Shown here piece after piece: positions 23,526 to 36,412 of a DNA stretch of 64,000 nt (positions within the stretch are counted from its first letter, which is position 1; every line of letters starts with the position of its first letter). A program made the translations under genes and the position numbers. Origin of the DNA: Escherichia phage vB_EcoM_JNE01; sequence record OR670491; one strand, 5' to 3'. Below the pieces are notes generated by a model. That model did not search any database. It was not told the origin of the DNA and saw nothing but the letters and a program-made list of their open reading frames with translations.

Positions 23526-23538
23526 GTTAAAAATTAGT

Positions 23539-23595: not shown

Positions 23596-23617
23596 ACTAT
23601 ATAAGAGGATTAAAAAA

Positions 23618-23857: not shown

Positions 23858-23869
23858 TAGAATATATTT

Positions 23870-23906
23870 AAAGTACTATCATTTTTTTGCGATAGTACTT
23901 TATAAT
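23870..23906 (+). promoter_or_regulatory. dyad AAAGTACTATC-N10-GATAGTACTTT abutting TATAAT (operator-like)
   Basis: same dyad plus promoter upstream of the paralog at 36326-36364. Confidence 0.4.
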
Positions 23907-23943
23907 AGTGTTTTATTCATACACCAACGATAAGGGCAACAGC

Positions 23944-24210
23944 ATGAATATTAAGTATTTTGCGACGCGTGAACAAGCTCGGATCGCCGCTCGCCAGGAC
24001 GGGGCAACGTTTAAAGATATGGGCGTACAATCGGAACGTGGTAAACGTTGGGCCATTGTAAAGCGTAGTACCGCCAGATCATTACAGTACTGGTTAGCGG
24101 CCTTAAAAAGTCCCGATAGTGTATCGCGTCGAGTGGTAGAAATAAAGCTCGACCGAAAGGGCAACCGCGTGACCGTGTACCGTACTAAAAAGATAGCAGT
24201 ACTTGAATAA
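23944..24210 (+). CDS. hypothetical small protein (paralog of 36413..36808)
   Basis: MNIKYFATREQARIAARQDG...DRKGNRVTVYRTKK. Confidence 0.6.
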   Translation: MNIKYFATREQARIAARQDGATFKDMGVQSERGKRWAIVKRSTARSLQYWLAALKSPDSVSRRVVEIKLDRKGNRVTVYRTKKIAVLE

Positions 24211-24217
24211 AAAGTAC

Positions 24218-24276
24218 TTGCAAACTATGTTTAATGGCGTATAATGTTTTACATCGAGAGCGGGAACTCTTCCCGC
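24218..24276 (+). promoter_or_regulatory. early-type promoter (TTGCAA-16-TATAAT) plus 5' stem-loop GCGGGAA-CTC-TTCCCGC
   Basis: read directly. Confidence 0.55.
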
Positions 24277-24297
24277 CTATAACCTGGAGTAATAAAA

Positions 24298-24528
24298 ATG
24301 ACTAATATGTATATGACTGAAGTTAAAACCGTAAAAGATACTACCACGAATAAAACTACTTACTTACAGCGGATCTGCGGTGTATGGCAACGTATCAGCA
24401 AATCAAAGTACTTTAAATTAACATCATATGCAAATCGTTCGGATTCATTCAGTACTGAAATAAAAGGTAATAAAGTACACCAATACGGCACTTATTATTA
24501 TTACAGCCTGGACGCGATTGCAGTATAA
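24298..24528 (+). CDS. hypothetical small protein
   Basis: 76-aa ORF, SD GGAG. Confidence 0.6.
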   Translation: MTNMYMTEVKTVKDTTTNKTTYLQRICGVWQRISKSKYFKLTSYANRSDSFSTEIKGNKVHQYGTYYYYSLDAIAV

Positions 24529-24558
24529 GCAGTTTACAAATCTTTACAATTGCCGGTA

Positions 24559-24640
24559 TTGACTTATTTTGTCAGTACTGGCATAATGTATTCATTGGCA
24601 GATAAGCCGTAGCCCATAGGGTGCGGGAGTGTATCTATAG
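24559..24640 (+). promoter_or_regulatory. promoter (TTGACT/CATAAT) followed by conserved element AGCCCATAGGGTGCGGGAGTGTATCTAT
   Basis: seven copies of this element in the window, always downstream of a promoter. Confidence 0.45.
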
Positions 24641-24812
24641 AAAAATTAGTTTAGTATAGTTACAATTGTGCACCCGGTGGGTTAGCTGTTGTCATGGGGT
24701 ATATTATGCCAGTACTTGATAATTCTGTCAATACTTTTTTTTTACTATTCAGTACTGAAAACTATTTTTAAAAAGTACTTGCAAACTATGTTTAAAGGCG
24801 TATAATGTTTTA

Positions 24813-24895
24813 CATCAGGACGGGGAACGAAATAAGTAACTTCCCGTTAAGTAGCCCAGGAGTAAGGCACACGAAAAACTCCCCTGATAAAATAG
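24813..24895 (+). ncRNA. candidate structured leader / small RNA (about 80 nt)
   Basis: promoter-driven, no ORF, two hairpins; near-identical copy at 35214-35295. Confidence 0.3.
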
Positions 24896-24956
24896 TTTGA
24901 CAAATGTTTTTAAAAGCGTATAATACTTACATCAACTACTGAATGAGGGTTACAAA

Positions 24957-25568
24957 ATGAAAACTATCACTACTACTACTTTCGTTATGGATTTTTCTGA
25001 ATTGAACGCAGAACAACAAACGTCAGCTATCGAACTGGTTCGGGATCGTGAGCGTTCATGTGAGGATAATTTCTTTGCTGAGGGCGTTATCGAGTACTAT
25101 AAAGAAACAGTACTACCAGAATACGGCATAGATGAAGCTGAATTGCAATACAGTGGTTTTTGGTCGCAAGGTGACGGTGCATCAATCAGTACTGACAGCG
25201 TGGACGCAGTGAAGTTTTTACGCAAGATTAAAGCGTTAACGAAATATCGTTCTATCCGTCACTTGTTGAATGAAGATGATTTGGCAATGAGTGTAGAACG
25301 TTCACACTCTCGCTACGCACACGAAAACACGGTAAGCGGGTACATTGAATCGGCTTACACTGATTTAACCGCAAAACAAGAAACGTTAGTTAATGAGCTT
25401 GAGGAACTACTCACTGATACTATTCGTGAATTGTCCCGCAAGTTGTACCGTGATTTAGAGAATGCATATGAGGATCAATTCACTACTGAAAACATTACGG
25501 CACTGATTGAGGGTAACGAATATCAATTCAATGTTATTGATGGCGTAGTGGAATCAATCGAATATTAA
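24957..25568 (+). CDS. hypothetical protein
   Basis: 203-aa acidic ORF with its own promoter (TTGACA...TATAAT) and SD. Confidence 0.65.
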   Translation: MKTITTTTFVMDFSELNAEQQTSAIELVRDRERSCEDNFFAEGVIEYYKETVLPEYGIDEAELQYSGFWSQGDGASISTDSVDAVKFLRKIKALTKYRSIRHLLNEDDLAMSVERSHSRYAHENTVSGYIESAYTDLTAKQETLVNELEELLTDTIRELSRKLYRDLENAYEDQFTTENITALIEGNEYQFNVIDGVVESIEY

Positions 25569-25580
25569 TTTAAAAAGTAC

Positions 25581-25640
25581 TTGCAAACTAAGTTTAAAAG
25601 CGTATAATACTTTATATCGAGGCGGGGAGTGGTTCCCCGC
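25581..25640 (+). promoter_or_regulatory. early-type promoter plus 5' stem-loop GCGGGGA-GTGG-TTCCCCGC
   Basis: TTGCAA 25581-25586, TATAAT 25603-25608. Confidence 0.55.
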
Positions 25641-25658
25641 TCAAACGAGGATTTAAAA

Positions 25659-25898
25659 ATGGCTAGTACTAAAACTTACAACGGACACAAAAACAAAACT
25701 CATTGGAATGTAAGCCTTTGGATTAATAACGGTGAGTCATTGTATCGGCTTGCTCAAAGTTGCATCGCACAAAGTAGAACTAAAGATATTGCTGCGGAAT
25801 GTATGTACCGCAGATTAAAAGCCAACGGTACTACTACAACGCCGGACGGCTTTAAGTATAGCACTACTGCGATCCGTGCTGCAATGGTTGGAATGTAA
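25659..25898 (+). CDS. hypothetical small protein (paralog of 23618..23857)
   Basis: MASTKTYNGHKNKTHWNVSLWINN...PDGFKYSTTAIRAAMVGM. Confidence 0.6.
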   Translation: MASTKTYNGHKNKTHWNVSLWINNGESLYRLAQSCIAQSRTKDIAAECMYRRLKANGTTTTPDGFKYSTTAIRAAMVGM

Positions 25899-25955
25899 TA
25901 TTCAGTACTGAGATAATGGCGGGTAATAGTTCCCGCCTTTACTGAGGGTTATCTA

Positions 25956-26216
25956 ATGAGTAAAGTAATTAGCTATACAGCACTAAGCAAGACATTATCT
26001 ATTAGCCAGTGCACCGATGGTTATTGGCTATTTGATGAAACGCGTGGCATGAATTTAGCGATGCGTGCAAAAACTGCTGAGGCGGCGTATATTCAAGCAC
26101 TGGAATACTACCAGGAACGTTTAAAGGAAGTAGAAGAAGATTATAAAAGCCTCAAAGCGAAAGTAGATCATTTCGTCGGTCAATTCAACGAGGAAGACGA
26201 CGACAAACAATATTGA
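25956..26216 (+). CDS. hypothetical small protein
   Basis: 86-aa ORF preceded by hairpin GGCGGGTAATAGTTCCCGCC. Confidence 0.55.
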   Translation: MSKVISYTALSKTLSISQCTDGYWLFDETRGMNLAMRAKTAEAAYIQALEYYQERLKEVEEDYKSLKAKVDHFVGQFNEEDDDKQY

Positions 26217-26224
26217 AAAAGTAC

Positions 26225-26283
26225 TTGCAATTAGTTTTCAGTACTGTATAATGGTTTACATCAAAGGGAGAAATGGTTCTCCC
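26225..26283 (+). promoter_or_regulatory. early-type promoter plus 5' stem-loop GGGAGAA-ATGG-TTCTCCC
   Basis: TTGCAA 26225-26230, TATAAT 26247-26252. Confidence 0.55.
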
Positions 26284-26302
26284 TGGTAATGAGGAAAATA
26301 AA

Positions 26303-26524
26303 ATGGCTAATATCACTACTCTTTCCCAACTGGAAGCACTGGTGAAATCTATGCGGGAACATGCCGACAAAATCGGCGTACAAGATCCAGCCGTTTGCTT
26401 CTGCGACGAATTGAATGATGATACCCTGGTAATAGCAGAAGTCCAGGACGTTTCTAACTATTCCTCGCGTTACACTGGCGGCGTAGCAAATAAAGGCGAC
26501 TTCTGTTTATACCTTACAAAATAA
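26303..26524 (+). CDS. hypothetical small protein
   Basis: start moved to MANITTLSQ with SD GAGGAAA. Confidence 0.6.
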   Translation: MANITTLSQLEALVKSMREHADKIGVQDPAVCFCDELNDDTLVIAEVQDVSNYSSRYTGGVANKGDFCLYLTK

Positions 26525-26529
26525 CAACG

Positions 26530-26559
26530 CGGGGAGATAATAACTCCCCGTTACTTTTT
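26530..26559 (+). terminator. rho-independent terminator
   Basis: CGGGGAG-loop-CTCCCCG hairpin plus T-run. Confidence 0.6.
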
Positions 26560-26767
26560 CAGTACTGAATCATTTAATAGACGGATCTCGGCACCCGGTG
26601 GGTTAGTGACTGTTTCGTCTTGATGTAGTAATTATGCCAGTACTGGATGCACTTGTCAACAACTATTTTTCAAATACTTTTTATTAAAATACTTGCAATT
26701 AGTTTTTAAACGCGTATAATGTTTTGCATAGGGGGAGCGGTTCCCCTGGTAACTAAGGAATAATAAA

Positions 26768-27004
26768 ATGCTTGAACAAATCAAATCAACGTCTGCGAAT
26801 GTAACGGGAACGGTATCACACTTTACTAGTGATGAATCGCGTGGTGTTCCTTATTGTGCTGTACATGTAAACACTGATGGCAACTACTGGTTTACGGTTT
26901 ACGGATCATATTCATTTGGACGGCCAGGGCATCAAAAAATTCTGGATAAAGTACAACCAACGGGTAAAAATATCACTGCCGAAATGTTTTATAAAAAATC
27001 ATAA
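26768..27004 (+). CDS. hypothetical small protein
   Basis: 78-aa ORF with promoter, hairpin and SD upstream. Confidence 0.6.
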   Translation: MLEQIKSTSANVTGTVSHFTSDESRGVPYCAVHVNTDGNYWFTVYGSYSFGRPGHQKILDKVQPTGKNITAEMFYKKS

Positions 27005-27009
27005 AGTAC

Positions 27010-27068
27010 TTGCAATTAGTTTTTAGTACTGTATAATATTTTACATCGCAAGGGGAAACGGTTTCCCC
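27010..27068 (+). promoter_or_regulatory. early-type promoter plus 5' stem-loop GGGGAAA-CGG-TTTCCCC
   Basis: TTGCAA 27010-27015, TATAAT 27032-27037. Confidence 0.55.
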
Positions 27069-27088
27069 TGGTAACTAAGGATAATCAA

Positions 27089-27388
27089 ATGAAAGTTGCA
27101 ATCATCGCCCTGGCTTTATCTGTATCGTCTTTCGCTGTTAACGCTTCCGTTGATGTACCGCGTGAAAAATTCATTCAGTGCACTGTTGCAATGACTAACG
27201 AGGAAACGGCTGAGATTGTTACCAAATCCCTGGAACTGGCCCCTGCAATGTTTGCTAATGGCCCGTACCATGAAGAAGATGATCAGGGTAGCACGACCAT
27301 CTATTACGATGCAAAAAGTAAACGCGGTTCAGTTACTGTAATGGATACTGAGAAAGTTACATTCACGGGAGTAATTAATTGTTTTTAA
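27089..27388 (+). CDS. small secreted/periplasmic protein (Sec signal peptide)
   Basis: MKVAIIALALSVSSFAVNA/SVD: hydrophobic N-region with AxA cleavage motif. Confidence 0.65.
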   Translation: MKVAIIALALSVSSFAVNASVDVPREKFIQCTVAMTNEETAEIVTKSLELAPAMFANGPYHEEDDQGSTTIYYDAKSKRGSVTVMDTEKVTFTGVINCF

Positions 27389-27404
27389 TGAAGTACTGAA
27401 TCAT

Positions 27405-27434
27405 AAGCCCACTATAAGAAGTGGGCTTTTTTTA
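27405..27434 (+). terminator. rho-independent terminator
   Basis: AAGCCCACT-loop-AGTGGGCTT plus T-run. Confidence 0.65.
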
Positions 27435-27518
27435 TTGTAGTACTGAATACTTTAAAAATAGTTTTGAAATAGTAGTTGACATTACCAGGGAAAGGCGTAG
27501 AATGTATTACATCAGGAC

Positions 27519-27600
27519 GGGGAACACTAAGTAGACCGCCAGTAAGTCGAACGAAAAACTGGACACGACCTGGAAACTTTGATAAACTAACTTACACTTT
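27519..27600 (+). ncRNA. candidate structured 5' leader (diverged copy of the 80-nt element)
   Basis: begins CATCAGGACGGGGAAC like copies at 24813 and 35214. Confidence 0.25.
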
Positions 27601-27618
27601 AATTGAGGAATTAAAAAA

Positions 27619-28098
27619 ATGGCAAATGTAAAATCATTCTTTAAAGCACTGGTATCTTCTGACGTATCTATCGCCGCTGAATTGCTGGCTGACCTGGATA
27701 ATGATACCATGAAAGCAGTACGCAATAATTTTAATATGGCGTACAGTGCAGCAAAAGAACTGCAAGCCAAAAAGGTAGCAGAACTGGAAGCGGCAAAGGC
27801 AGAACGTGAAGCAGAACTGCAAGCAACAATCGAAAGCATCCAGGCGGCGGTAAGTGGATTGGATATCGAGATCGTAACCGATATGGCACATAAAGCCCTA
27901 GCTGCAAAATACGGTGAAGTAAAAGCGGTTAAAGAAAAGAAATGGATTCAGGACCGCGTTAACGTAGTACTTGACAACGGGGAAGAATATCTTATTCCTG
28001 TACGCGGTAACTGCATTGCCGTAGTACTGGACGCGATTAACTCCAGTGGTATGACACGCGAGGAATGGATCGAAGCTCATCGCAAAGTTGAAGCATAA
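27619..28098 (+). CDS. hypothetical protein with central coiled-coil-like segment
   Basis: 159 aa; AKKVAELEAAKAEREAELQATIESIQAAV. Confidence 0.65.
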   Translation: MANVKSFFKALVSSDVSIAAELLADLDNDTMKAVRNNFNMAYSAAKELQAKKVAELEAAKAEREAELQATIESIQAAVSGLDIEIVTDMAHKALAAKYGEVKAVKEKKWIQDRVNVVLDNGEEYLIPVRGNCIAVVLDAINSSGMTREEWIEAHRKVEA

Positions 28099-28119
28099 CA
28101 ATAAAAGTACTGAATCACT

Positions 28120-28147
28120 AGCCCACCTTAAACGGTGGGCTTTTTTG
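28120..28147 (+). terminator. rho-independent terminator
   Basis: AGCCCACC-TTAAAC-GGTGGGCT plus T-run. Confidence 0.65.
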
Positions 28148-28373
28148 TGTTTATCGTTTACCAGGCCACCAGCACCGCCTAGAAACGATTCTAACGCATT
28201 AAACTGATTATCTGATGCATTGCCCTAGCTGGTGGCGTTAAGGCTGTAAGAACGCGATTGAGAGCGTTTAAAGTATTTTGCAAAAAGTAATAAAAAGTAC
28301 TTGCACGATTAAGAGATTAGCGTATAATTAATTACATCAAGGCAAGACACCTTAACTAACTGAGGATATAAAG

Positions 28374-28526
28374 ATGAATACTTATGACCTGGATTGTTTT
28401 ACTTTACAAGTAATGTCAGTATGCAGTAAGAAAGATTGGTCATCAAAGGAATTTAAAGCAGTTATCGCGTGTGCAAAACACGGCAAGACTATCAATGAAA
28501 CGGCATCAATCATTGATAAACTTTAA
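28374..28526 (+). CDS. hypothetical small protein (50 aa, not in ORF track)
   Basis: hand-translated; promoter and SD GAGGA upstream. Confidence 0.45.
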   Translation: MNTYDLDCFTLQVMSVCSKKDWSSKEFKAVIACAKHGKTINETASIIDKL

Positions 28527-28595
28527 AAAATAGTTTGACAATAGTTTTAAGTACTGGCATAATACATACATCAACTACTGAATAGGAATTAAAAA

Positions 28596-28823
28596 ATGGC
28601 TATTATCATTACTCGCGTATCTGGTACTACTGGCAACGAACAAGTAGTTGCAGTCATTACCAACAAGGAAGGTGCGGAATTGCAAAATGCAATGAATACC
28701 TGGGCCGTTAATGAGTTCGGTCAGTGGGCAAGTGTAGCATACATTGAAACCTATCAAGTGCCGTCGATTAGTTTAACTGATTTGGGCGTTGAGCGTATCC
28801 TTTGCCTGGATGAATTAAATTAA
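28596..28823 (+). CDS. hypothetical small protein
   Basis: 75-aa ORF with promoter and SD. Confidence 0.6.
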   Translation: MAIIITRVSGTTGNEQVVAVITNKEGAELQNAMNTWAVNEFGQWASVAYIETYQVPSISLTDLGVERILCLDELN

Positions 28824-28908
28824 AAAAGTACTTGCAAAGTAAATCGAATAAAGTATAATACATTACATCAAGGGGAGAAATGGTTCTCCCCACTACAAGG
28901 AAACTAAA

Positions 28909-29052
28909 ATGAAAACTTGTCAATGTGGTCATAAATCTATTACGGGTTTTAAGCGGGGCGTTGCTCTTTGCCAGTACCATTATAATTTACAAGTATGGGG
29001 TAAAGAATGGGCCGACCAGGTGGAAGCAGCAAAGAAAGCAAAAAGTAAGTAA
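28909..29052 (+). CDS. hypothetical small protein (47 aa, not in ORF track)
   Basis: hand-translated MKTCQCGHKS...; promoter, hairpin and SD upstream. Confidence 0.45.
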   Translation: MKTCQCGHKSITGFKRGVALCQYHYNLQVWGKEWADQVEAAKKAKSK

Positions 29053-29140
29053 AATATTATCACAGTACTATTGACATAGTTTGATAGTACTGGCATAATA
29101 GATTTTATCAAGACAACATATTAATTTAAGGAATACAAAA

Positions 29141-29464
29141 ATGGCTAAAACTATCATTAACACCGTTTCCCTGGCTGCAATCCGTGCAATCAATGTTGAC
29201 GGTAAACGTTGGACTGATACATATGGCAATACTTATCATTCTTGTCATGTAAGCGTTGAACTGGATAACGGTTTGAATGATCTGGCGGTTGAATCATTTA
29301 CTTATGGCTATGAAGATGCATATCAACAAACGGCGTTAGATCTATTAAAGGAATCAGTAGACGGGCTTAATACTGATGAAACCTCCCTTACTCGTTTGTG
29401 CAATGATCTTAATATCCCGTTGCATTGTACTGTACAGAATGTTAAACGCAAAAAAGATCTTTAA
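29141..29464 (+). CDS. hypothetical protein (paralog of 35990..36313)
   Basis: shared RWTD..GNTYHSC.VS and C-terminal KRKKD. Confidence 0.6.
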   Translation: MAKTIINTVSLAAIRAINVDGKRWTDTYGNTYHSCHVSVELDNGLNDLAVESFTYGYEDAYQQTALDLLKESVDGLNTDETSLTRLCNDLNIPLHCTVQNVKRKKDL

Positions 29465-29544
29465 TTAGCTTTACTTTATGCAGATACTTTGATATAGTGT
29501 CTGCATAGGGGAAAGAAATTAAATTAACTTAAGAGGATCGTATA

Positions 29545-29814
29545 ATGAAAAATATCAGTACTTTAATCGATACAGGTACTCATGTTCGTCGGTCTATGGT
29601 TGCAACCAGTACTACAAAACAAGTACCAAGCGGTTATCTTGTATTTGTGCACGATGGTAAACTCCTGGAACGTTCAATCAATTTTGATGTTAAAAACAAT
29701 TGCCGTTTTATTATCTTTAAGCGTGAGCAATATAAAATTGATTTACCAGCAAAGCCCATAAGCGGGGCGTACAACGTGCAATCATTGTTTGAACGTCAAC
29801 CATACACCTATTAA
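29545..29814 (+). CDS. hypothetical small protein
   Basis: 89-aa ORF, SD GAGGA. Confidence 0.55.
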   Translation: MKNISTLIDTGTHVRRSMVATSTTKQVPSGYLVFVHDGKLLERSINFDVKNNCRFIIFKREQYKIDLPAKPISGAYNVQSLFERQPYTY

Positions 29815-29865
29815 TCAAAACATCGTTAGCGGTCGATTTAGGCCGCGTATATTGGGGATTATACC

Positions 29866-30138
29866 ATGAACGTTAATCAAGTACTGAATGAGATCGAAAG
29901 CATCATTAAACCAATGAAACGCATTGATGCTATGTTAACACCGGAAGAATGCCGCCTTTATGAGCGTTACAGCGTCGAACAAGTCCAGGCAATGGCTATG
30001 GCTACCCCAGCCGTTAAACCGCCTGAGAATGCGTTACAGGACGTTACAGGGGATTATATCATCAATCCAGTACTAGGGAAGATGGCTGCAATCACCGAAG
30101 ATCAACAAGATTACTTAAGTCAGTACTTAAAAGGTTAA
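29866..30138 (+). CDS. hypothetical small protein
   Basis: 90-aa ORF. Confidence 0.55.
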   Translation: MNVNQVLNEIESIIKPMKRIDAMLTPEECRLYERYSVEQVQAMAMATPAVKPPENALQDVTGDYIINPVLGKMAAITEDQQDYLSQYLKG

Positions 30139-30143
30139 TTAAT

Positions 30144-30353
30144 ATGCTTACTGTACAGGATAAGATCGACATCTTAAAGGTTAATATGTATGTGATTGAT
30201 GCAGTACCTGGTAAAGTATTTGCATACGATGACAGTACTGTAAGCGATTTCTACTATAGCCAGGACGTGGGGGATCTTTCTGTACAGTCGGTTATTGAAA
30301 ACGTAGTTAATGCAGCGTATGAGCATTTACTTTCAAATAGTACTTGCAATTAG
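30144..30353 (+). CDS. hypothetical small protein
   Basis: 69-aa ORF; 3' end runs into next promoter. Confidence 0.5.
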   Translation: MLTVQDKIDILKVNMYVIDAVPGKVFAYDDSTVSDFYYSQDVGDLSVQSVIENVVNAAYEHLLSNSTCN

Positions 30354-30422
30354 TTTTTAAACGCGTATAATGTTTTACATGAAGGGGAGAAATGATTCTC
30401 CCCACTAATTAAGGAATATGAA

Positions 30423-30569
30423 ATGAAAGCATCAAAAAAGAGTAATACTAAGAAAGCACGTTCAACCTTAGATGGGGTATTCCCTTTACGTTTCGTTGAT
30501 GAAGTGGTGTCCTACCCGCCGGGCCTTACTCCTGAGATGGTAGAAAGTTTGCGTAAATCTAAAAAATAG
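30423..30569 (+). CDS. hypothetical small basic protein (48 aa, not in ORF track)
   Basis: hand-translated; promoter, hairpin and SD upstream. Confidence 0.45.
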   Translation: MKASKKSNTKKARSTLDGVFPLRFVDEVVSYPPGLTPEMVESLRKSKK

Positions 30570-30650
30570 TACTTGCAATTAGTTTTTAGTACTGTATAAT
30601 AGTTTACATGAAGGGGAGAAATGATTCTCCCCAATAACAGGAGAATCAAA

Positions 30651-30803
30651 ATGAAACAATACAACGCTCGGTTTGATGTTACTATCGGTAACGGCAAAGG
30701 TCAATTCTCTTTCAGTACTCGCAAAAGTTATACAGAAAACTTCCTGCGTAATTGTGCACTGACCGCCGCTCAAATTAAACATTACTTTCAGGCTAAAAAA
30801 TGA
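30651..30803 (+). CDS. hypothetical small protein
   Basis: start moved to MKQYNARF downstream of promoter hairpin; SD AGGAGAA. Confidence 0.5.
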   Translation: MKQYNARFDVTIGNGKGQFSFSTRKSYTENFLRNCALTAAQIKHYFQAKK

Positions 30804-30889
30804 AAACATTAGCTTACTATAGTTCGGCCCTGGTCGGTGCATTGATCGCGGCGTTGTTAGTAACCTATCTATTCTTTATGGTGATTTAA
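30800..30889 (+). CDS. candidate 29-aa single-TM peptide
   Basis: ATGA overlap with previous gene; hydrophobic MKTLAYYSSALVGALIAALLVTYLFFMVI. Confidence 0.3.
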   Translation: MKTLAYYSSALVGALIAALLVTYLFFMVI

Positions 30890-31033
30890 ATGAATCCAAC
30901 AGGTTTAAACTATAAAAGTTGTTCGGCGTTTACGAAAGCAAATAAAGCGAATGCACGTAAAGCGAAAGTACAAGAATACATCAAGCAAGGCATGACGCGA
31001 AAGGCGGCGATTCTAAAAGCTAAAAATAAATGA
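30890..31033 (+). CDS. candidate 47-aa basic protein
   Basis: TAA-ATG abutting start; hand-translated. Confidence 0.3.
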   Translation: MNPTGLNYKSCSAFTKANKANARKAKVQEYIKQGMTRKAAILKAKNK

Positions 31034-31113
31034 AAAAAGTGGTTGACTCCGGTCAGCCATTTTGCTATTATATATTCATTGAGAGATAGCTCACTAGCCC
31101 ACAGGGTGCATAA
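31033..31113 (+). promoter_or_regulatory. terminator/promoter hairpin plus conserved element AGCCCACAGGGTGCATAAGTGTATCTAT
   Basis: TTGACT inside inverted repeat, TATTAT -10, then conserved element. Confidence 0.45.
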
Positions 31114-31254
31114 GTGTATCTATTATATGAGTATTGAGTACTGAAAACTATTTTAAAAGTATTTGTAGAAAGTACTTGCAAACTATCTCAATAAGCGTAT
31201 AATGTTTTACATCGAAAGGGGAAACGGTTTCCCCTGATAATAAGGAAACAAATC

Positions 31255-31596
31255 ATGACTATCTCAATTGCTCAATCTAACTTTGAAAACGAAATCATCG
31301 CCCAGGCACTGCGTTTAAATGATGGTCGGGCCGAAATTAATTACGGTTTCAATTCAGGCGGTTGTGAAAAATATCAGTACTTTGTAACGGCTGATGGCGG
31401 TGTCCTGGGTATCAATACAGTTATTGTAAACATCCAAAAAATTAATTTCAATGATCCAGACGATAGCCAGTTTTACATCACTGGCGTAGACGTGAACTAT
31501 GAGGATGACTCACTAACTGATGATCACACTGGTGAGAAGTTAGAGAGTGCATACGGTGAAGATGATTATCAGTCAGTACCGGAAGATTTTGAATAA
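31255..31596 (+). CDS. hypothetical acidic protein
   Basis: 113-aa ORF; second promoter, hairpin and SD upstream. Confidence 0.6.
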   Translation: MTISIAQSNFENEIIAQALRLNDGRAEINYGFNSGGCEKYQYFVTADGGVLGINTVIVNIQKINFNDPDDSQFYITGVDVNYEDDSLTDDHTGEKLESAYGEDDYQSVPEDFE

Positions 31597-31693
31597 TATT
31601 AAAAAAATAGTTTGACAATAGATTATAGTACTGTATAATAGTTTACATCAAGGGGAGAAAAACTTCTCCCCACTAACAGAGAGAGAAAACAAA

Positions 31694-31906
31694 ATGGCTA
31701 ATATCTGCACTGTACTGAAAAATGCAAAACAAGTTTTATTTTCTGATCACGATCATTTAAACAAGGATATTACTGGCGTTCGGAATATCAAAGATGTAAA
31801 AAGTGTTATGGGTATCTATTGCAATATGAAACGTGTTGGAACGTTCGGCGACAAAGTACTATACCAGGCAGGGGATTACAATTTTACACTGACTATCATT
31901 AACTAA
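31694..31906 (+). CDS. hypothetical small protein
   Basis: 70-aa ORF with promoter, hairpin and SD. Confidence 0.6.
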   Translation: MANICTVLKNAKQVLFSDHDHLNKDITGVRNIKDVKSVMGIYCNMKRVGTFGDKVLYQAGDYNFTLTIIN

Positions 31907-31998
31907 AAATATATTACCAGTACTATTAAATCTATTGACAACGTTTGATAGTACTGACATAATAACTTTTATCAACTACACTACTAAGGAATTAAAAA

Positions 31999-32178
31999 AT
32001 GGCTATCATCGCAAAAACTGAAATCGTTGGTCTGGATTCTATCATCATGACGTTTGAAGATCAAAAAGGTATGTATGTAGTTTCATATGGTGATTATGTT
32101 CGGGAGTATGAAACGGTAGACGAAGCCTTTGAAAGTTATATTCGCCAGGTGAATAAAGCATACGACGACTACCGCTAA
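31999..32178 (+). CDS. hypothetical small protein (59 aa, not in ORF track)
   Basis: hand-translated MAIIAKTEIVG...; promoter and SD AAGGAA. Confidence 0.45.
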   Translation: MAIIAKTEIVGLDSIIMTFEDQKGMYVVSYGDYVREYETVDEAFESYIRQVNKAYDDYR

Positions 32179-32268
32179 AATATATTACCAGTGCTATTGA
32201 CAAAGTTTGATAGTACTGTATAATAAGTTTTATAAACAGTAGTTAACTTAACCTAAGAGAGAAATAAA

Positions 32269-32412
32269 ATGATCGCACTGGATTCATTCATCGACGCAGT
32301 ACTGGCAAAAACTGGCGAGGATCTGACCGCAGAACAATACGCGATGATCGAGCAATGTCAGCAAAACGGTAAATCGGTGAAAGATACTGTTAAGATTATC
32401 CGCAAGATGTAA
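32269..32412 (+). CDS. hypothetical small protein (47 aa, not in ORF track)
   Basis: hand-translated; promoter TTGACA...TATAAT and SD upstream; terminator downstream. Confidence 0.45.
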   Translation: MIALDSFIDAVLAKTGEDLTAEQYAMIEQCQQNGKSVKDTVKIIRKM

Positions 32413-32418
32413 GATTAT

Positions 32419-32447
32419 AGCCCACTGGTTAACGCTGGTGGGCTTTA
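32419..32447 (+). terminator. terminator hairpin containing a Chi octamer
   Basis: AGCCCAC-loop-GTGGGCT; loop/stem contains GCTGGTGG. Confidence 0.5.
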
Positions 32448-32517
32448 ATCCTTTACCCTATACAATGCCAGTACTCAACCGTTTATCTCGTTAGAATGCG
32501 TTACAGGACGTTTGACA

Positions 32518-32715
32518 ATGATTAGCATGAAATCAGTACAAAAACAAATAGAAACATTATCAAAAATTAAACGTAAACAGTACTCGTTAGAATATACAAT
32601 CAATGGTAACTATCATCTAATGAAAGAGAATAATTTTATCGTCATTGATGAATCATTGCAAGTTATTAGTATAGTACTGAAAGCATTAATCAATGACAGA
32701 AAAAAATTAAAATAA
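32518..32715 (+). CDS. hypothetical small protein
   Basis: ORF; weak SD; start uncertain. Confidence 0.35.
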   Translation: MISMKSVQKQIETLSKIKRKQYSLEYTINGNYHLMKENNFIVIDESLQVISIVLKALINDRKKLK

Positions 32716-32804
32716 TCTATTGACAATATCCTCCAGTACTGGCATAATACTTACATCAAGACGAGAACGTCGCTAACCCATAGGGTGCACAAATGTAACT
32801 ATAT

Positions 32805-32895
32805 AATATCGATCAATAAATGATCAAAAAAGTACTGGATCAATTTAGCATAAGGCGTATAATTCTGATCAATTCTTGATCAAAGGCAATATACG
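32805..32895 (+). promoter_or_regulatory. GATC-rich palindromic cluster (five GATC sites, TGATCAA repeats)
   Basis: ATCGATCAATAAATGATCAA...GGATCAAT...TGATCAATTCTTGATCAA, upstream of the TraR-like gene. Confidence 0.35.
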
Positions 32896-33044
32896 CAGTT
32901 GAATTTATATAGACAGTACAAAGGCGTTACTATCCGTGGTAATGCTGGTGGATATGTAGTATCATATGGTTTGAATAAGATAAACACTAGTAGTATTATT
33001 GTAGCATTACAGTACTATAGTATTTTTATAATGAGGTTAAAATA

Positions 33045-33302
33045 ATGGCAGTAGGATACGCGAAAGACGGGGCCGAACAAGACGAGATTCACGCAGTGAT
33101 TCAGGCCGCCGTTAACCACGCTAGAAAGCAAATTAACGCACAAAGAGAATCACTGGTACATTGCCTCGACTGCGGCGATAAAATCCCTGAGAATCGACGC
33201 CAGGCCGTTATAGGGTGCATGTATTGTATTACTTGCCAGGAGGATCATGATAGTACTTTTAAAAGAGATCCGCGTAATTGTTGGCATAGATCTATGAGAT
33301 AA
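33045..33302 (+). CDS. TraR/DksA-family C4 zinc-finger protein
   Basis: CLDCGDKIPENRRQAVIGCMYCITCQ matches the CxxCGxxIPExRR...CxxCQ signature. Confidence 0.7.
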   Translation: MAVGYAKDGAEQDEIHAVIQAAVNHARKQINAQRESLVHCLDCGDKIPENRRQAVIGCMYCITCQEDHDSTFKRDPRNCWHRSMR

Positions 33303-33365
33303 AAAGTATTGACAGTACTGAAAGATAGTGTATAATGTTTTATATCTTAACTGAGGATAGTAATC

Positions 33366-33722
33366 ATGGGAATACAACATATCACGCGTACTACTGACAA
33401 TGGCGAGATCACTGGTTATCAGGTACAGGGCAAAGTAGCACAATTGCAGTACTGGTTTGTTAAACGTGGAATCATTGCACCGGATCTTGATTATGACCGT
33501 GTAGCGTTTATTGATTCTCTTTATGTTGATCCTGATAGTCGGGGCAATGGTGAAGGTAACGAATTAATGAATGCCTTTATTGATGCCGCCGATGATTCAG
33601 ATTGTATCATCTTAGAATGCGATACGGGAGAAGATAACGCCTTTAATCTTAAAGAATGGTACGAAGGTTTCGGATTCGAGGTACTGATCGATAGTGAATA
33701 TCCTATCATGATTTTATCATAG
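33366..33722 (+). CDS. possible GNAT-like acetyltransferase domain protein
   Basis: VAFIDSLYV...RGNGEGNELMNAF resembles the R-x-x-G-x-G CoA-binding motif; weak. Confidence 0.4.
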   Translation: MGIQHITRTTDNGEITGYQVQGKVAQLQYWFVKRGIIAPDLDYDRVAFIDSLYVDPDSRGNGEGNELMNAFIDAADDSDCIILECDTGEDNAFNLKEWYEGFGFEVLIDSEYPIMILS

Positions 33723-33800
33723 TACTTGCATTTAGTTTTCAGTACTGTTATAGTACTTGCATCAAGGGGAAACATCTTCCCCTACTAAGAGGAAATAAAA

Positions 33801-33989
33801 ATGGAAAACTTATCAAGTATTTTAGTACAAGATGATTTCGGTAATCCTGGAAGTGCTATCATTGTTCGGGGCAATAAAGCAACGTTTGTTATTGCTGGTG
33901 GACCCGTACAGCGTAGCATTAAAAATAATGCTGTTACCATTAATAATGTACGCTATCGCTTAGATAAAGAATTAATTCATAAACTGTAA
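33801..33989 (+). CDS. hypothetical small protein
   Basis: 62-aa ORF with promoter, hairpin and SD. Confidence 0.55.
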   Translation: MENLSSILVQDDFGNPGSAIIVRGNKATFVIAGGPVQRSIKNNAVTINNVRYRLDKELIHKL

Positions 33990-34016
33990 TATTAATTTAA
34001 TAGAGGATAACAATAA

Positions 34017-34340
34017 ATGTACATTCATACTACTATCACAAAGGAAGTCCGTTGCCAGTTCGAAAGTATTCCGGGCGTATGTTTCATCACTGGTACGTTT
34101 TCCCCTGGTGATCGTGATAATCCAGTACTGTTACAATTACGCCATCCATCATGGGATAAAGCATTTGATCTACCGTTGAATGAATTCGCAACTACTGCTG
34201 AAAAGTACATTAAAAATATTCGCGAGAATGATCGACTATTCATTAATGCTTTTAGTGATGCCGCGTTAAGTGAGATCCATGCTGTATTGGTTGCAATCAT
34301 GGAATCAATGGAGAAAACTATATTCAAACAAGGTGAATAA
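34017..34340 (+). CDS. hypothetical protein
   Basis: 107-aa ORF, SD GAGGA. Confidence 0.55.
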   Translation: MYIHTTITKEVRCQFESIPGVCFITGTFSPGDRDNPVLLQLRHPSWDKAFDLPLNEFATTAEKYIKNIRENDRLFINAFSDAALSEIHAVLVAIMESMEKTIFKQGE

Positions 34341-34423
34341 AAACTATTGACAATGCAATCCAGTACTGTATAATAGTTTACATGAAGGAGAGAAATGATT
34401 CTCCCCACTAAGAGGAAAGAAAA

Positions 34424-34636
34424 ATGCAAGGTCAACTAATCGTTCGTAAATGGTCTGATACTAACGAAAAACCGTGGGATGTACAATACATCGCCCCAAA
34501 TGGTGAATCCAGATATCAACCAGGTGTAACGCATAGTACTGAGCAATTCGCCGCCGCTCATCGCGAACGTCTGTTACAATCAATGCAGCAAGGTTCCGGT
34601 GAAAAATTCATTCAGGATCATTGGCTGAAAGATTAA
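34424..34636 (+). CDS. hypothetical small protein
   Basis: 70-aa ORF with promoter, hairpin and SD. Confidence 0.6.
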   Translation: MQGQLIVRKWSDTNEKPWDVQYIAPNGESRYQPGVTHSTEQFAAAHRERLLQSMQQGSGEKFIQDHWLKD

Positions 34637-34722
34637 AAAGTACTTGCACAGTACTGAATAAAGTGTATAATGTTTTATATCGGAAGGGGAATAGTTCCCC
34701 TCCGAACAAAGAGGAAAGTATA

Positions 34723-34896
34723 ATGGTCCAGGTAGAATTAACAGTACTGAAAGATCTGTTTTATCGGATTGGTACTACTGGCGAATATCCGAAGGGTGAT
34801 AATGCAAAACTTTACGTATCACTCGACTTATGGCAACGCGAACAATTAGCAACGGCCTGGCGTAAAGGCAAAGCAGATAGCGAGGTGAAAGCATGA
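34723..34896 (+). CDS. hypothetical small protein
   Basis: start moved to MVQVELTVLK downstream of promoter hairpin; SD AGAGGAAA. Confidence 0.5.
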   Translation: MVQVELTVLKDLFYRIGTTGEYPKGDNAKLYVSLDLWQREQLATAWRKGKADSEVKA

Positions 34897-35042
34897 AAGA
34901 ATTCTTATTTGAAGTAGTGTTTCAAGGTGTCGGTAATAACCAACTGATTCGATCAAGTGGTTATAATGTTAACCAGGCATGGAATAACATTAAACAAATG
35001 TACCCGAACGCTATCACATATCGCAACCCGAAAGAAGTTTAA
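34893..35042 (+). CDS. hypothetical small protein (49 aa, not in ORF track)
   Basis: ATGA overlap; hand-translated. Confidence 0.4.
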   Translation: MKEFLFEVVFQGVGNNQLIRSSGYNVNQAWNNIKQMYPNAITYRNPKEV

Positions 35043-35060
35043 AAATAATTGAAAAAGGGA

Positions 35061-35136
35061 TTGACTCCGGTCAGTCCCTTTGTTATTATATACGCATAGA
35101 AACAAATTAGCCCACCGGGTGCATAAATGTATCTAT
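35061..35136 (+). promoter_or_regulatory. terminator/promoter hairpin GGGATTGACTCCGGTCAGTCCC plus conserved element AGCCCACCGGGTGCATAAATGTATCTAT
   Basis: near-identical copies at 38336 and 41086. Confidence 0.45.
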
Positions 35137-35213
35137 TGTTTGCTGGTGGCTAGTACTGAAAACTATTTTTAAAAAGTACTTGCATTGTACTTAGAATCAA
35201 GTATAATGTTTTA

Positions 35214-35295
35214 CATCAGGACGGGGAACGAAATAAGTAACCCCGTTAAGTAGTCCAGGAGTAAGACATACGAAAAACTCCCCTGATAAAATAGT
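35214..35295 (+). ncRNA. candidate structured leader / small RNA (about 80 nt)
   Basis: second copy of the 24813-24895 element; differences preserve hairpin pairing. Confidence 0.3.
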
Positions 35296-35356
35296 TTGAC
35301 AATAGAAAGTAAACGAGTATAATACTTACATCAACCACTGATAAGGAAACATAAAA

Positions 35357-35632
35357 ATGCGGATTCTACTGACAGCTAACGAAATCGAACAAGTACTGAC
35401 TACTAATCTGGAACAATGGAAACGTGAAGCAGATATCCAGGCGGTTCAATGCCTTAACGATAAGTTAACGCCAGATGACTTAAGCACGATTGTTGATCCA
35501 CAATTTTATGAAGATATTCACGACACGTCTTTAAGCGTCGAGGATGTACTTGATAAGCACTACATTGATACTGATTTACATGTTTACGGTCGTAAAAACT
35601 TTATCACTATTCACGACATTTACAATACTTAA
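35357..35632 (+). CDS. hypothetical protein
   Basis: 91-aa ORF with third promoter and SD. Confidence 0.6.
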   Translation: MRILLTANEIEQVLTTNLEQWKREADIQAVQCLNDKLTPDDLSTIVDPQFYEDIHDTSLSVEDVLDKHYIDTDLHVYGRKNFITIHDIYNT

Positions 35633-35718
35633 GTATTGACAAAGTATCTTAGTACTGTATAATAGTTTACATCAAGGGGGGGAATGGTTCCCCTCCTAAC
35701 TAAAAGAGAGAAATAAAA

Positions 35719-35901
35719 ATGGCTAAGTGCACTATCTGTAATAAAGAAATAGTATTAGTTCCAAGTGCCCGTGAACGTGCCGCTCGGTTCGGTGGCAAAG
35801 CGTCAGACTATACAAAAATGTTTACTACCCATACAGCTTGCCAGGTAGCAAAACGTTCACAAGAAAGCGTAGAATTAATGCGTAAACTTTCCAAAAAATA
35901 A
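35719..35901 (+). CDS. hypothetical small protein
   Basis: 60-aa ORF with promoter, hairpin and SD. Confidence 0.55.
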   Translation: MAKCTICNKEIVLVPSARERAARFGGKASDYTKMFTTHTACQVAKRSQESVELMRKLSKK

Positions 35902-35989
35902 GTATTGACAAAGTATCTTAGTACTGTATAATAGTTTACATCAAGGGGGGGGGAATGGTTCCCCTCCTAACAAAGAGAGAGAAATAAAA

Positions 35990-36313
35990 ATGGCTATGAT
36001 CCTTACCCAGAAAGTAGAACTGAAAATTGTAACCTCCTTTGACATTAAAGTTAATCGGTGGACTGATAGCCACGGCAATACTTACCACTCCTGCTACGTG
36101 TCCGCATTGATTGGTGATCGCTGGGAAGACCTGGGACACGAAACCTTTACATACGGTTACGGCACACAAGGCGAGTACACGGGTTTAGAAATCATTAAGG
36201 AAACTGTAATAGGTTTCAACCCGAAAGAGAAAGTACTACACAGAATTGAGAAAGAGATCAACAAAGAAATTACAGTTCGCTACTACGATGTAAAACGTAA
36301 GAAAGACATGTAA
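35990..36313 (+). CDS. hypothetical protein (paralog of 29141..29464)
   Basis: shared RWTD.HGNTYHSCYVS and C-terminal KRKKDM. Confidence 0.6.
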   Translation: MAMILTQKVELKIVTSFDIKVNRWTDSHGNTYHSCYVSALIGDRWEDLGHETFTYGYGTQGEYTGLEIIKETVIGFNPKEKVLHRIEKEINKEITVRYYDVKRKKDM

Positions 36314-36325
36314 TAGAATCCATTT

Positions 36326-36364
36326 AAAGTACTATTTGACATTGCCCAGATAGTACTTTATAAT
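36326..36364 (+). promoter_or_regulatory. dyad AAAGTACTAT-N-ATAGTACTTT enclosing TTGACA, abutting TATAAT (operator-like)
   Basis: TTGACA 36337-36342, TATAAT 36359-36364; dyad arms on both sides of -35. Confidence 0.45.
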
Positions 36365-36412
36365 AGACTCTAACTTGTAGTACTAATTAACTTAACTAAT
36401 AGGATGTACACC

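Follow-up and report, generated by a model that had tools for sequence, protein, structure and literature searches.

The putL and putR sites of phage HK022 specify processive antitermination RNAs, structured nascent RNAs of ~70 nt that act in cis on RNA polymerase to suppress downstream terminators without protein factors. They lie just behind early promoters of a phage relying on host RNA polymerase, and no gene for a dedicated protein partner lies close by. A put RNA is made up of two stem-loops and contains no pseudoknot; directly behind it, put operons carry no further promoter. In lambda nut sites and rrn leaders (boxB-boxA-boxC), leader structure is combined with a boxA near an early or strong promoter, boxB of lambda being a simple 5-bp hairpin with a pentaloop. 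T4-type phages carry cassettes with promoter-early stem-loops (PeSLs), simple hairpins thought to mediate recombination. Other RNAs for comparison are the small aptamers preQ1-I and SAM-II, in which an H-type pseudoknot, an A-rich third loop and invariant unpaired bases are typical, and the RNA anti-CRISPRs and pseudo-ToxI decoys, which are early, highly expressed, protein-independent phage RNAs that mimic host RNA sequence. In phage T7, transcription of the incoming DNA also pulls the genome into the cell; the left-end leader of T7, in use as a template for transcription over the past fifty years, is generally described as non-coding.

The window analysed here (64,000 nt of Escherichia phage vB_EcoM_JNE01; OR670491) is from an Asteriusvirus-like, virulent jumbo coliphage and contains exactly three copies of a structured element (A, B and C; Table 1). 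A core pattern with 17 specified bases matches exactly these sites, against a chance expectation of 0.2, and a covariance model built from relatives and run on both strands returns exactly three matches (52-56 bits; E ~1e-11), with a next-best score of 8 bits. The initial annotation had reported two near-identical promoter-driven copies, each immediately followed by another promoter; the quoted sequences are present where it placed them, the covariance model confirms both, and a perfect TTGACA-16-TATAAT promoter lies directly 3' of each. Three substitutions and one 2-nt indel, the latter in the first hairpin, are the only differences between copies A and B, and the compensated pairing it described in this hairpin is real, the stem staying paired despite the indel (ACGGGGA/UUCCCGU in A, ACGGGG/CCCCGU in B). 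The diverged third copy that it proposed also exists in the leader of gene 27619, though the domain spans 27511-27572 rather than 27519-27600. This copy C has no following promoter, continues into the 5' UTR of gene 27619-28098 as the 5' part of a ~108-nt leader, and has orthologues in 121Q, PBECO4 and CMSTMSU; in Munch and Hallingskeid, both jumbo phages, the motif is likewise followed by a homologue of the gene. All three copies begin at the predicted start site of a near-consensus σ70 promoter (A24814 of copy A being inferred from promoter spacing), and they are single and dispersed, without tandem repeats. No conserved ORF occurs within the three copies; a 31-codon frame of copy A has its start within the -10 hexamer, and in B the 2-nt indel disrupts it. 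Predicted folds of A and B are more stable than those of shuffled sequences (z -2.0 and -3.1, respectively), and that of copy C, with nested pairs only, is not (z -0.8).

Table 1. Positions in the window of the three element copies, their helices and the neighbouring promoters, genes and terminator.
Feature	Position	Strand	Basis or remark
Promoter P1 of copy A, TTGCAA-16-TATAAT	24779..24806	+	Promoter scan; in repeated promoter families D1/D2/D4
Copy A RNA domain	24814..24888	+	Sequence; covariance match 24845-24885, 52.2 bits; constrained fold; pair counts
Copy A helix P1	24814-24819 with 24883-24888	+	
Copy A hairpin P2	24820-24826 with 24841-24847	+	
Copy A UAAGUAG strand	24848-24854	+	
Copy A S1	24854-24856 with 24866-24868	+	X:Y = C:G
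Copy A S2	24859-24862 with 24879-24882	+	
Copy A A-rich loop	24869-24878	+	
Second promoter, right behind copy A, TTGACA-16-TATAAT	24897..24924	+	Promoter scan; drives gene 24957-25568
Promoter of copy C, TTGACA-16-TAGAAT	27476..27503	+	Promoter scan; just 3' of intrinsic terminator 27405-27428
Copy C RNA domain, variant without P2	27511..27572	+	Covariance match 27525-27565, 52.4 bits; constrained fold; orthologues
Copy C helix P1	27513-27516 and 27518-27519 with 27566-27567 and 27569-27572	+	
Copy C UAAGUAG strand	27528-27534	+	
Copy C S1	27534-27536 with 27546-27548	+	X:Y = A:U
Copy C S2	27539-27542 with 27559-27562	+	
Gene behind copy C	27619..28098	+	159 aa; phrog_27871/20181; function unknown
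Strong terminator after gene 27619-28098	28120-28141		Ends the one-gene unit of copy C
Promoter P1 of copy B, TTGCAT-16-TATAAT	35180..35207	+	Predicted start A35215; repeat families D1/D2
Copy B RNA domain	35215..35287	+	Sequence; covariance match 35244-35284, 55.7 bits; constrained fold
Copy B helix P1	35215-35220 with 35282-35287	+	
Copy B hairpin P2	35221-35226 with 35241-35246	+	
Copy B UAAGUAG strand	35247-35253	+	
Copy B S1	35253-35255 with 35265-35267	+	X:Y = U:A
Copy B S2	35258-35261 with 35278-35281	+	
Second promoter after copy B, TTGACA-16-TATAAT	35296..35323	+	Drives gene 35357-35632 (91 aa)

All three copies fit the core UAAGUAG-X-C ... UAAG-Y-C-R-N-A-Y-GAAAA, the core consensus being UAAGUA[GXC]N[5 bp](N)UAA[GYC]RNAYGAAAAM[5 bp]. 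The predicted fold is closed by a helix, P1, and includes a hairpin, P2, that is not always present, the invariant strand UAAGUA and an H-type pseudoknot. The pseudoknot combines a 3-bp S1 (GXC/GYC) with an S2 of 4-5 bp and a 10-nt loop rich in A; its strands run S1-L1-S2-L2-S1'-L3-S2', L1 being short and L2 3-4 nt long. In the window, S2 is GGAG/CUCC in copies A and B and CCAG/CUGG in copy C, and the P1 strands are AUCAGG/CCUGAU in the former two and CAGG.CG/CG.CCUG in the latter. Pairing of S1 and S2 in 25 distinct cores reaches 97.5%, compared with 14-38% when the partners are slid, and X:Y is AU in 18 of these cores, UA in four and CG in three, without mismatches; a further instance has GC, so that all four Watson-Crick forms have been seen. 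Four helices covary among 28 distinct T7-type sequences, with both sides changing in 10 of 18 pairs (matched by none of 500 shuffles). P1 is present in all 15 folded sequences of non-T7 type and shows compensated variation (e.g. AUC/GAU to AUG/CAU); T7-like phages instead pair the P2 loop with the 3' flank, which creates a second pseudoknot. Pattern matches in bacterial genome contigs fail S2 pairing in all but one real T7-like contig. Since four helices covary and chance pattern matches lack such pairing, a structured element at the RNA level is strongly supported. Around 20 bases of the domain are invariant and unpaired, and the most conserved bases are the unpaired ones.

A DNA-level function, such as an UP-element or protein site for the downstream promoter, or a functionless remnant of promoter-cassette duplication, is hard to reconcile with these data and is very improbable. 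It would account for the A-rich tract upstream of the next -35 hexamer and for the overlap of the T7 element's 3' end with the A2 -35 hexamer; close relatives share the entire intergenic region with little change, which makes conservation there uninformative. However, stems that change sequence in four helices yet stay complementary are not expected of a DNA site, and the core is kept across phage families despite unrelated flanks. Moreover, the second strong promoter, found behind the domain in most lineages, lies at distances of 2-45 nt, and no such promoter follows copy C or the T7-like instances L026 and L030.

The same core is carried by 485 T7-like records, by further jumbo phages and by members of the Stephanstirmvirinae and Vequintavirinae, giving a family of >500 members that is confined, among the matches examined, to virulent phages of Enterobacteria; no match was found in E. 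coli genomes and plasmids. Comparative sequence data show the element to be a self-contained pseudoknotted RNA domain of ~62-75 nt, with a fold supported by its covariation, and a member of an undescribed RNA family common to jumbo, V5-like/phAPEC8-like and T7-like enterobacterial phages. The pseudoknot fold, the conservation of unpaired bases and the distribution over at least four phage lineages including T7 extend beyond the initial annotation, which had suggested a promoter-driven small RNA or cis-acting leader. A structured RNA is strongly supported by the four covarying helices, though the comparative data do not decide between a free small RNA and a leader. The domain behaves as a module moving between unrelated phages, with a breakpoint at its 5' end; the stretch from the motif through gene 35357-35632 shares ~95% identity with the unrelated phage muut.

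In T7, the element lies between promoters A1 and A2 in the A1 leader (P2 from nt 533, domain nt 548-596; 62 bits with the covariance model). This region, part of the 'non-coding internalisation signal' (nt ~533-596), is homologous to the window copies, sharing the core and the S1/S2 pseudoknot, and as in the window the domain is placed behind the first strong early host promoter and ahead of the next. It differs in having an extra 5' hairpin before the domain and in the pairing of the P2 loop with a 3' flank that is the A2 -35 hexamer. The evidence presented here indicates that the left-end leader of T7 holds a putative double-pseudoknotted RNA, and that jumbo and V5-like phages kept T7's RNA or gained it by horizontal transfer. 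The T7 record has no annotation for the element, and no description of it, in T7 or elsewhere, was found in the searchable literature. CRISPRi block of T7 A1 delays lysis more than its modest reporter effect predicts (PMC11863960). This delay may simply reflect the strength or position of the A1 promoter.

Known RNA classes do not account for the element. Rfam 15 gives no matches in the whole window at gathering score, and no relevant match up to E 10 for copy A and the T7 and phiA1122 regions; models of hammerhead, twister, pistol, hatchet and HDV-like ribozymes, ToxI and CRISPR-repeat-like RNA do not match, and ARAGORN finds no tRNA or tmRNA genes in the window. A type III antitoxin RNA, which would have tandem 34-45-nt repeats beside a gene for a toxin endoribonuclease, is rejected on the single, dispersed arrangement of the copies and on neighbouring proteins that match no defence-system models. 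A riboswitch was likewise set aside, there being no terminator or alternative pairing of a ribosome-binding site, a second promoter intervening in A and B, and no Rfam riboswitch match. More broadly, a ligand-binding aptamer (one that senses a small molecule, e.g. an immune signalling nucleotide, in the way of a riboswitch, or soaks it up as a sponge) or self-cleaving ribozyme would suit the H-type pseudoknot, A-rich third loop and many invariant unpaired bases, and the architecture is permuted among lineages, as in ribozymes. The element shares its strand order, short first loop and A-rich third loop with preQ1-I and SAM-II, but its S1 has only 3 bp, its L2 3-4 nt, and it has no expression platform in which a terminator or sequestered ribosome-binding site alternates with the fold. 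To our knowledge, no cleavage of the element has been reported; T7 A1 templates containing it are routinely transcribed in vitro, for which PMC7430646 and PMC11863960 are examples. With no riboswitch or ribozyme model matching even at E up to 10, this explanation appears decidedly unlikely.

In all lineages, including the window, the domain occupies the sense strand and is no more than ~100 nt away from a strong σ70-type early promoter. No intrinsic terminator directly follows the window copies or is seen in the displayed 3' flanks of relatives, and transcripts are thus inferred always to run on past the domain, which forms the direct 5' UTR in copy C, its orthologues and L026/L030. Transcripts from the upstream promoter have an untranslated leader >100 nt longer. 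As P1 in jumbo and V5-like phages starts with transcript position +1/+2, the domain could be a 5'-terminal structure shielding these transcripts from RppH/RNase E 5'-end-dependent decay or Rho loading, and every other early transcript of the window also begins with a GC hairpin. Yet ~40 other cassettes manage with a simple hairpin, and end protection calls for neither a conserved pseudoknot nor ~20 bases that are invariant and unpaired. In T7-like phages a separate 5' hairpin comes first, and the domain follows only ~35 nt from the transcript start, with the core UAAGUAG at +54. Such a role is consequently considered unlikely, if less so than an aptamer or ribozyme.

The function of the element is inferred rather than shown. 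The reading favoured here, by analogy with HK022 put and with a probability of only about 0.3, is that of a nascent-RNA domain acting in cis on host RNA polymerase. The domain lies at or near the 5' end of early transcripts from predicted host σ70 promoters, and its invariant unpaired bases may represent a surface recognized by a conserved host component, most likely the transcribing polymerase itself. The domain would fold on leaving the exit channel and remain bound to the polymerase that made it, which, as with put RNA, would resist pausing, backtracking and termination. The first kilobases of phage DNA to enter the cell would then be transcribed by polymerases that had started at the upstream promoter, with the following promoter supplying ordinary polymerases for bulk expression. 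Counted in favour of a cis-acting leader are the promoter-proximal, sense-strand position, the absence of a terminator, the use as a 5' UTR, the CRISPRi result and the location in jumbo relatives with determined ends, where the element is 3.4-3.7 kb from the genome end or within the terminal repeat. The genes downstream vary among lineages, which argues against a regulator of one particular gene. Also counted are boxA sequences downstream of the domain, which are present in 30 of 73 distinct instances, all T7-like; L026 and L030 have a perfect or near-perfect rrn-type boxA antitermination signal 17-23 nt 3' of the motif, an arrangement recalling lambda nut and rrn leaders, though no N-like protein is implied.

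Several observations count against cis action on polymerase. No experiment bears on the mechanism, and many transcripts lack the domain because a second strong promoter follows so closely, unlike in put operons. A strong terminator closes the one-gene unit of copy C, which is awkward for an antiterminator role. The fold, with P1, optional P2 and a pseudoknot, is unlike the two adjacent stem-loops of put and has no sequence similarity to them, and no boxA beyond chance is present in the window, nor any in jumbo or V5-like instances; the lack of boxA speaks against a nut-like or rrn-like antitermination site in the window.

Ranked nearly as likely, and just as tentative, is a trans-acting RNA made in large amounts from its own strong promoter. 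Within a longer transcript, or once freed by RNase E (jumbo phages) or by RNase III at R0.3 (T7), it would bind and titrate a conserved host protein or a component of anti-phage defence at a time when phage proteins are still absent, and would thus be an RNA decoy or sponge. The domain occupies its own promoter cassette, with the next gene separately promoted, in A, B, V5-like phages, Munch, Hallingskeid and T7, and is both mobile between unrelated phages and restricted to virulent phages of Enterobacteria. The two to three copies per jumbo genome (more when the terminal repeat is counted) and the compact closed domain, in which P1 joins the 5' end to the 3' flank, fit a dosage-dependent trans RNA equally well. 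However, no target is known, and in copy C and L026/L030 the domain simply serves as a 5' UTR. Of the features of a stand-alone sRNA gene, the promoter is present and a Rho-independent terminator or defined 3' end is absent, though the latter is not decisive since ordinary ORF cassettes of the window mostly lack terminators too. In contrast to known phage decoys, the element has no similar host or plasmid RNA to mimic, no tandem repeats and no cognate system nearby, and ToxI, CRISPR-repeat-like and other Rfam models are unmatched.

Conservation in hundreds of unrelated virulent phages suggests that the element probably matters at the very start of infection. It is conceivable, at somewhat less than even odds, that very different virulent coliphages share a protein-independent host-takeover RNA that acts before phage proteins, either reprogramming RNA polymerase through a fold unrelated to put to power genome entry, or neutralizing a host factor, defence protein or signalling molecule. 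If so, a new functional RNA class has been hidden in the best-studied phage, T7. The shared RNA suggests that infection of enterobacteria generally begins, within seconds, with a step based on RNA. It is also relevant to phage engineering, in which the A1-A3 region is often trimmed or replaced, and annotation pipelines and Rfam gain a new family.

The region surrounding the copies contains ~40 repeats of an early promoter, 5' stem-loop and small ORF, and these cassettes, which resemble the PeSL cassettes of T4-type phages, appear to shuffle between phages. The element differs from PeSLs in its conserved pseudoknot, invariant loops and ORF-less cassette.

The element belongs to a large, pseudoknotted RNA family, apparently undescribed, that lies at the head of early transcripts in T7-like, V5-like and jumbo enterobacterial phages. 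Its three copies in the window, A, B and C, had been proposed in the initial annotation to be promoter-driven non-coding RNAs, a general interpretation that holds. The sequences quoted there are found in the window, a 2-nt indel and three substitutions separate the near-identical copies A and B, and the compensated pairing of their first hairpin is real (ACGGGGA/UUCCCGU in A, ACGGGG/CCCCGU in B). Copy C, the diverged third copy, matches A and B over its first 15 nt and over a core of 40 nt and continues, as the leader it was suggested to be, into the ribosome-binding site of gene 27619-28098. Each copy follows a near-consensus sigma70 promoter, the predicted start site of which is the copy's 5' end, and the anticipated next-gene promoter is present within 9 nt downstream of both A and B as a perfect TTGACA-16-TATAAT. 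No reading frame is conserved among the copies; a 31-codon frame in copy A has its start within the -10 hexamer and is disrupted by the indel in B. A core pattern with 17 specified bases matches exactly the three copies (0.2 expected by chance), as does a covariance model built from relatives (three matches in 64 kb at 52-56 bits; next best 8 bits).

Copies of the RNA element in the window and helices of its T7-type members
Feature	Position	Strand	Description
Copy A	24814-24888	+	RNA element
Copy B	35215-35287	+	RNA element
Copy C	27511-27572	+	RNA element
T7-type helix P2	directly 5' of UAAGUA		4-5-bp hairpin: CCGG/CCGG, CCAG/CUGG, CCAC/GUGG, CGGG/CCCG, GCGG/CCGC
T7-type pairing of P2 loop with 3' flank			5-6 bp: GUCAA/UUGAC, GUGAA/UUCAC, GCUAA/UUAGC, GAUUAG/CUAAUC, GUCGGU/ACCGAC, GUCAUC/GAUGAC
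T7-type third and fourth helices			S1; S2

The structure of the element is well supported. Its core reads 5'-UAAGUA[GXC]N[S2a](N)UAA[GYC]RNAYGAAAAM[S2b]-3', in which stem S1 (GXC/GYC, with X:Y as its middle pair) interleaves with stem S2 to form an H-type pseudoknot with a first loop of 1-2 nt, a second of UAA and an A-rich third of 10 nt. Pairing is seen in 97.5% of cells over 25 distinct cores, compared with 14-38% after displacement of the partners by 1-3 columns. Of these cores, 18 have A:U at X:Y, four have U:A and three have C:G, with zero mismatches, and a G:C form also exists in the T7-like lineage L118; S2 occurs as CCUG/CAGG, CCAG/CUGG, CUUG/CAAG and GGAG/CUCC. X, Y and S2 were left unconstrained in the search pattern, with the invariant G and C of S1 fixed, and their pairing is thus not an ascertainment artefact. 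Independent X:Y events are found in T7-like lineages L022, L026/L030, L118 and L123; in Asteriusviruses the two X:Y states behave as linked haplotypes able to occupy either locus. The sole family member seen with an X:Y mismatch (C.A) is that of phage EmilieFrey (L136, ~431-470).

Beyond the core, four helices are supported in 28 distinct T7-type sequences, with both-sided change in 10 of 18 pairs, a result equalled by none of 500 shuffles. In T7 itself (L070, nt 591-596), the 3' strand of the P2-loop pairing (UUGAC) is the -35 hexamer of early promoter A2; lineages with a more distant next promoter differ in the sequence of this strand, with compensation (alignment A5). The window type has, in place of the P2-loop pairing, a closing helix P1, which joins the extreme 5' end of the transcript to bases just after S2 (AUCAGG/CCUGAU in A and B). 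This helix varies among relatives, and the change from AUC/GAU to AUG/CAU between phage Hallingskeid and locus L083 is compensated. P2 is optional, being replaced by ..GCAACAC in copy C, Hallingskeid, phage UPEC06, L026 and L030. MAFFT failed to align P1 and P2 structurally in full-length jumbo-type sequences, and their support there consequently comes from constrained folding; conservation relative to flanks is uninformative in close Asteriusviruses, because the entire intergenic region is ~96% identical. Since the stems covary, a site acting at the DNA level is excluded, and the reading of the element as a DNA element or remnant is very improbable.

The family was traced through sequence and pattern searches. 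The 88-nt element is shared by 44 phage records at 88-100% identity, including all Asteriusviruses found (two or four copies each in the rows listed) and the ~145-kb Stephanstirmvirinae/Vequintavirinae outra, muut, EmilieFrey, A73, W70, A7_1 and A5-4, which have the promoter-element-promoter layout of the window. More distant members, reached via copy C, occur in the jumbo phages Munch, 7t3, fENko-Kae01 and Hallingskeid and in UPEC06, and an unexpected relative lies between early promoters A1 and A2 of the T7-like Yersinia phage phiA1122. The T7 domain spans ~nt 533-596 (covariance-model core match 548-589), flanked by the transcription starts of A1 (498) and A2 (626), and is unannotated in the T7 record; a search of the A2/A3 leaders of T7 found no second copy. 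A BLAST query with the T7 version recovers 485 T7-like records, T3 and phiYeO3-12 among them, with hosts in Escherichia, Klebsiella, Salmonella, Yersinia, Enterobacter, Citrobacter, Shigella, Serratia and Erwinia. A degenerate pattern yields 42 loci in IMG/VR and 57 in metagenomes, of which the true members are either jumbo-phage contigs or 38-45-kb genomes of T7-like type; marine viral contigs L035, L040, L044 and L048 fit the pattern but not the pairing and were rejected. This longer pattern succeeded on viral contigs where an initial loop-only pattern had failed, returning 121Q itself and two chance matches within coding sequence. Applied to one bacterial or archaeal genome from each of 185,579 species, the degenerate pattern gives 18 matches: one is a T7-like contig, and the other 17, scattered over unrelated taxa and lacking S2 pairing, were dismissed as chance. 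The element is likewise absent from 5,426 complete E. coli genomes and 72,556 plasmids. On this distribution, the family appears to be confined to virulent phages of Enterobacteria. Exchange between its carriers is suggested by window 35215-35632, which is ~95% identical to the Justusliebigvirus muut (L135) over the motif, second promoter and a 91-aa gene, the similarity beginning at the -10/start site of the sigma70 promoter upstream of copy B. Muut is a 146-kb phage of a different family from the 350-kb jumbo phage, and the identity indicates that this stretch was recently transferred horizontally between the two lineages.

No known RNA accounts for the element. ARAGORN finds neither tRNA nor tmRNA in the window, no Rfam 15 model reaches its gathering score in the window, and a search at E up to 10 gives nothing relevant for copy A or the T7 and phiA1122 regions. 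Resemblances to ToxI, the tmRNA resume region, the 16S decoding site, the L11-binding domain, pistol and HDV topologies and CRISPR repeats were considered and dropped for lack of support. An aptamer or ribozyme would likewise be improbable, given the absence of an expression platform and of any model match. No description of the element, its literal sequence included, was found in full-text-searchable literature, where the published T7 fragment serves as a template or a named non-coding internalisation signal; older subscription-journal work on T3 and T7 was not covered, and an early mention cannot be excluded.

In every case the domain is on the sense strand, ~100 nt or less from a strong early host promoter, and no terminator follows it in any instance within the flanks displayed. 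Most lineages have a second strong promoter 2-45 nt downstream, and the domain is a plain 5' UTR in copy C and its orthologues (121Q, PBECO4, CMSTMSU) and in T7-like L026 and L030. The last two represent the simplest architecture of the family, with a single promoter, the motif (L030 4113-4180; L026 5388-5460), an rrn-type boxA (GCUCUUUAACAA) 17-23 nt on, and the first gene. Of 73 distinct instances, 30 have a boxA 17-395 nt downstream, every one T7-like; it is never found in jumbo or V5-like instances, and the window has none beyond chance. The invariant unpaired bases argue for a tertiary surface that, by inference, is recognised by a conserved host component. That the domain acts in cis on the RNA polymerase transcribing it is a tentative inference (probability roughly 0.3), favoured by its leader position, by obligatory read-through and by the association with boxA in the simplest architectures. 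The HK022 put RNA is anchored to polymerase, where it suppresses both backtracking and termination, and the domain would act similarly. Host polymerase draws the T7 genome into the cell, and for such a phage an anchor against backtracking, on polymerases that initiate at the leftmost promoter, would be attractive. A trans-acting decoy or sponge is also possible and ranks almost as likely as cis action, given the dedicated promoter cassette, closed compact fold, multiple copies and RNase III release in T7. That the domain is a mere 5' stabiliser is unlikely, as a hairpin would suffice. Cis action against backtracking is compatible with the published effect of CRISPRi at T7 A1, where the lysis delay exceeds that predicted from the effect on reporter output (PMC11863960).

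Genes downstream of the domain vary by lineage, with the exception of the copy C gene (phrog_27871/20181, unknown function). It is kept after the motif in three jumbo-phage lineages, the window's and those of Munch and Hallingskeid (L009 1658-2245; L010 1671-2297), has a weak, sub-threshold RNase H-like Pfam match, and may be a functional partner of the motif. Downstream proteins have no informative match in Pfam, PADLOC or PDB, and their PHROG families are of unknown function.

The window derives from an Asteriusvirus-like jumbo coliphage with 86-95% identity to its relatives 121Q and PBECO4. Its early region (23-42 kb; cassettes at 23000-41700) contains ~40 tandem cassettes, all on the + strand, each carrying a small ORF with its ribosome-binding site behind a near-consensus sigma70 promoter and a 5' GC hairpin (like GGGGAGAAAUGGUUCUCCCC); these cassettes (repeat families D1-D5) resemble the PeSL cassettes of T4-type phages. 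Relatives with determined termini carry the element either 3.4-3.7 kb in from the left end or within the direct terminal repeat. A second repeated non-coding element (31021-31158, 35041-35133, 38314-38451 and 41066-41158; short form at 24606-24638 and 32770-32802) is placed just upstream of copies A and B and consists of a 12-bp hairpin AAAGGGATTGACTCCGGTCAGTCCCTTT bearing a -35 hexamer (TTGACT-17-TATTAT), then AGCCCAYMGGGTGC...GTATCTAT. At 24559-24745, two convergent promoters (+24559 and -24731) flank an inverted pair of the AGCCCA..GGGTGC..GTATCTAT motif and would yield complementary short RNAs, or a long hairpin then a T9 run; the arrangement is kept in 121Q and UE-S1. At 22119-22270, 8-bp units (CTAAACGG / CTGGATGG / CTAGACGG) are repeated in tandem where minus-strand genes give way to the early region on the plus strand; this array is probably near a physical genome end or packaging site. 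On the minus strand, nine paralogous units at 6848-17036, spaced ~1.25 kb apart, have in common conserved 5' ends, ribosome-binding sites and a GCCAGTACTNGAGTACTGGC hairpin (families D6-D8, D10 and D17) and constitute an expanded gene family. Another family of short paralogous genes is probably marked by a 39-52-nt repeat (..AAAGAGTACTACAGAAA..CTCCCA; D14 and D20) that recurs seven times at 18967-20854, with a spacing of 180-615 nt.
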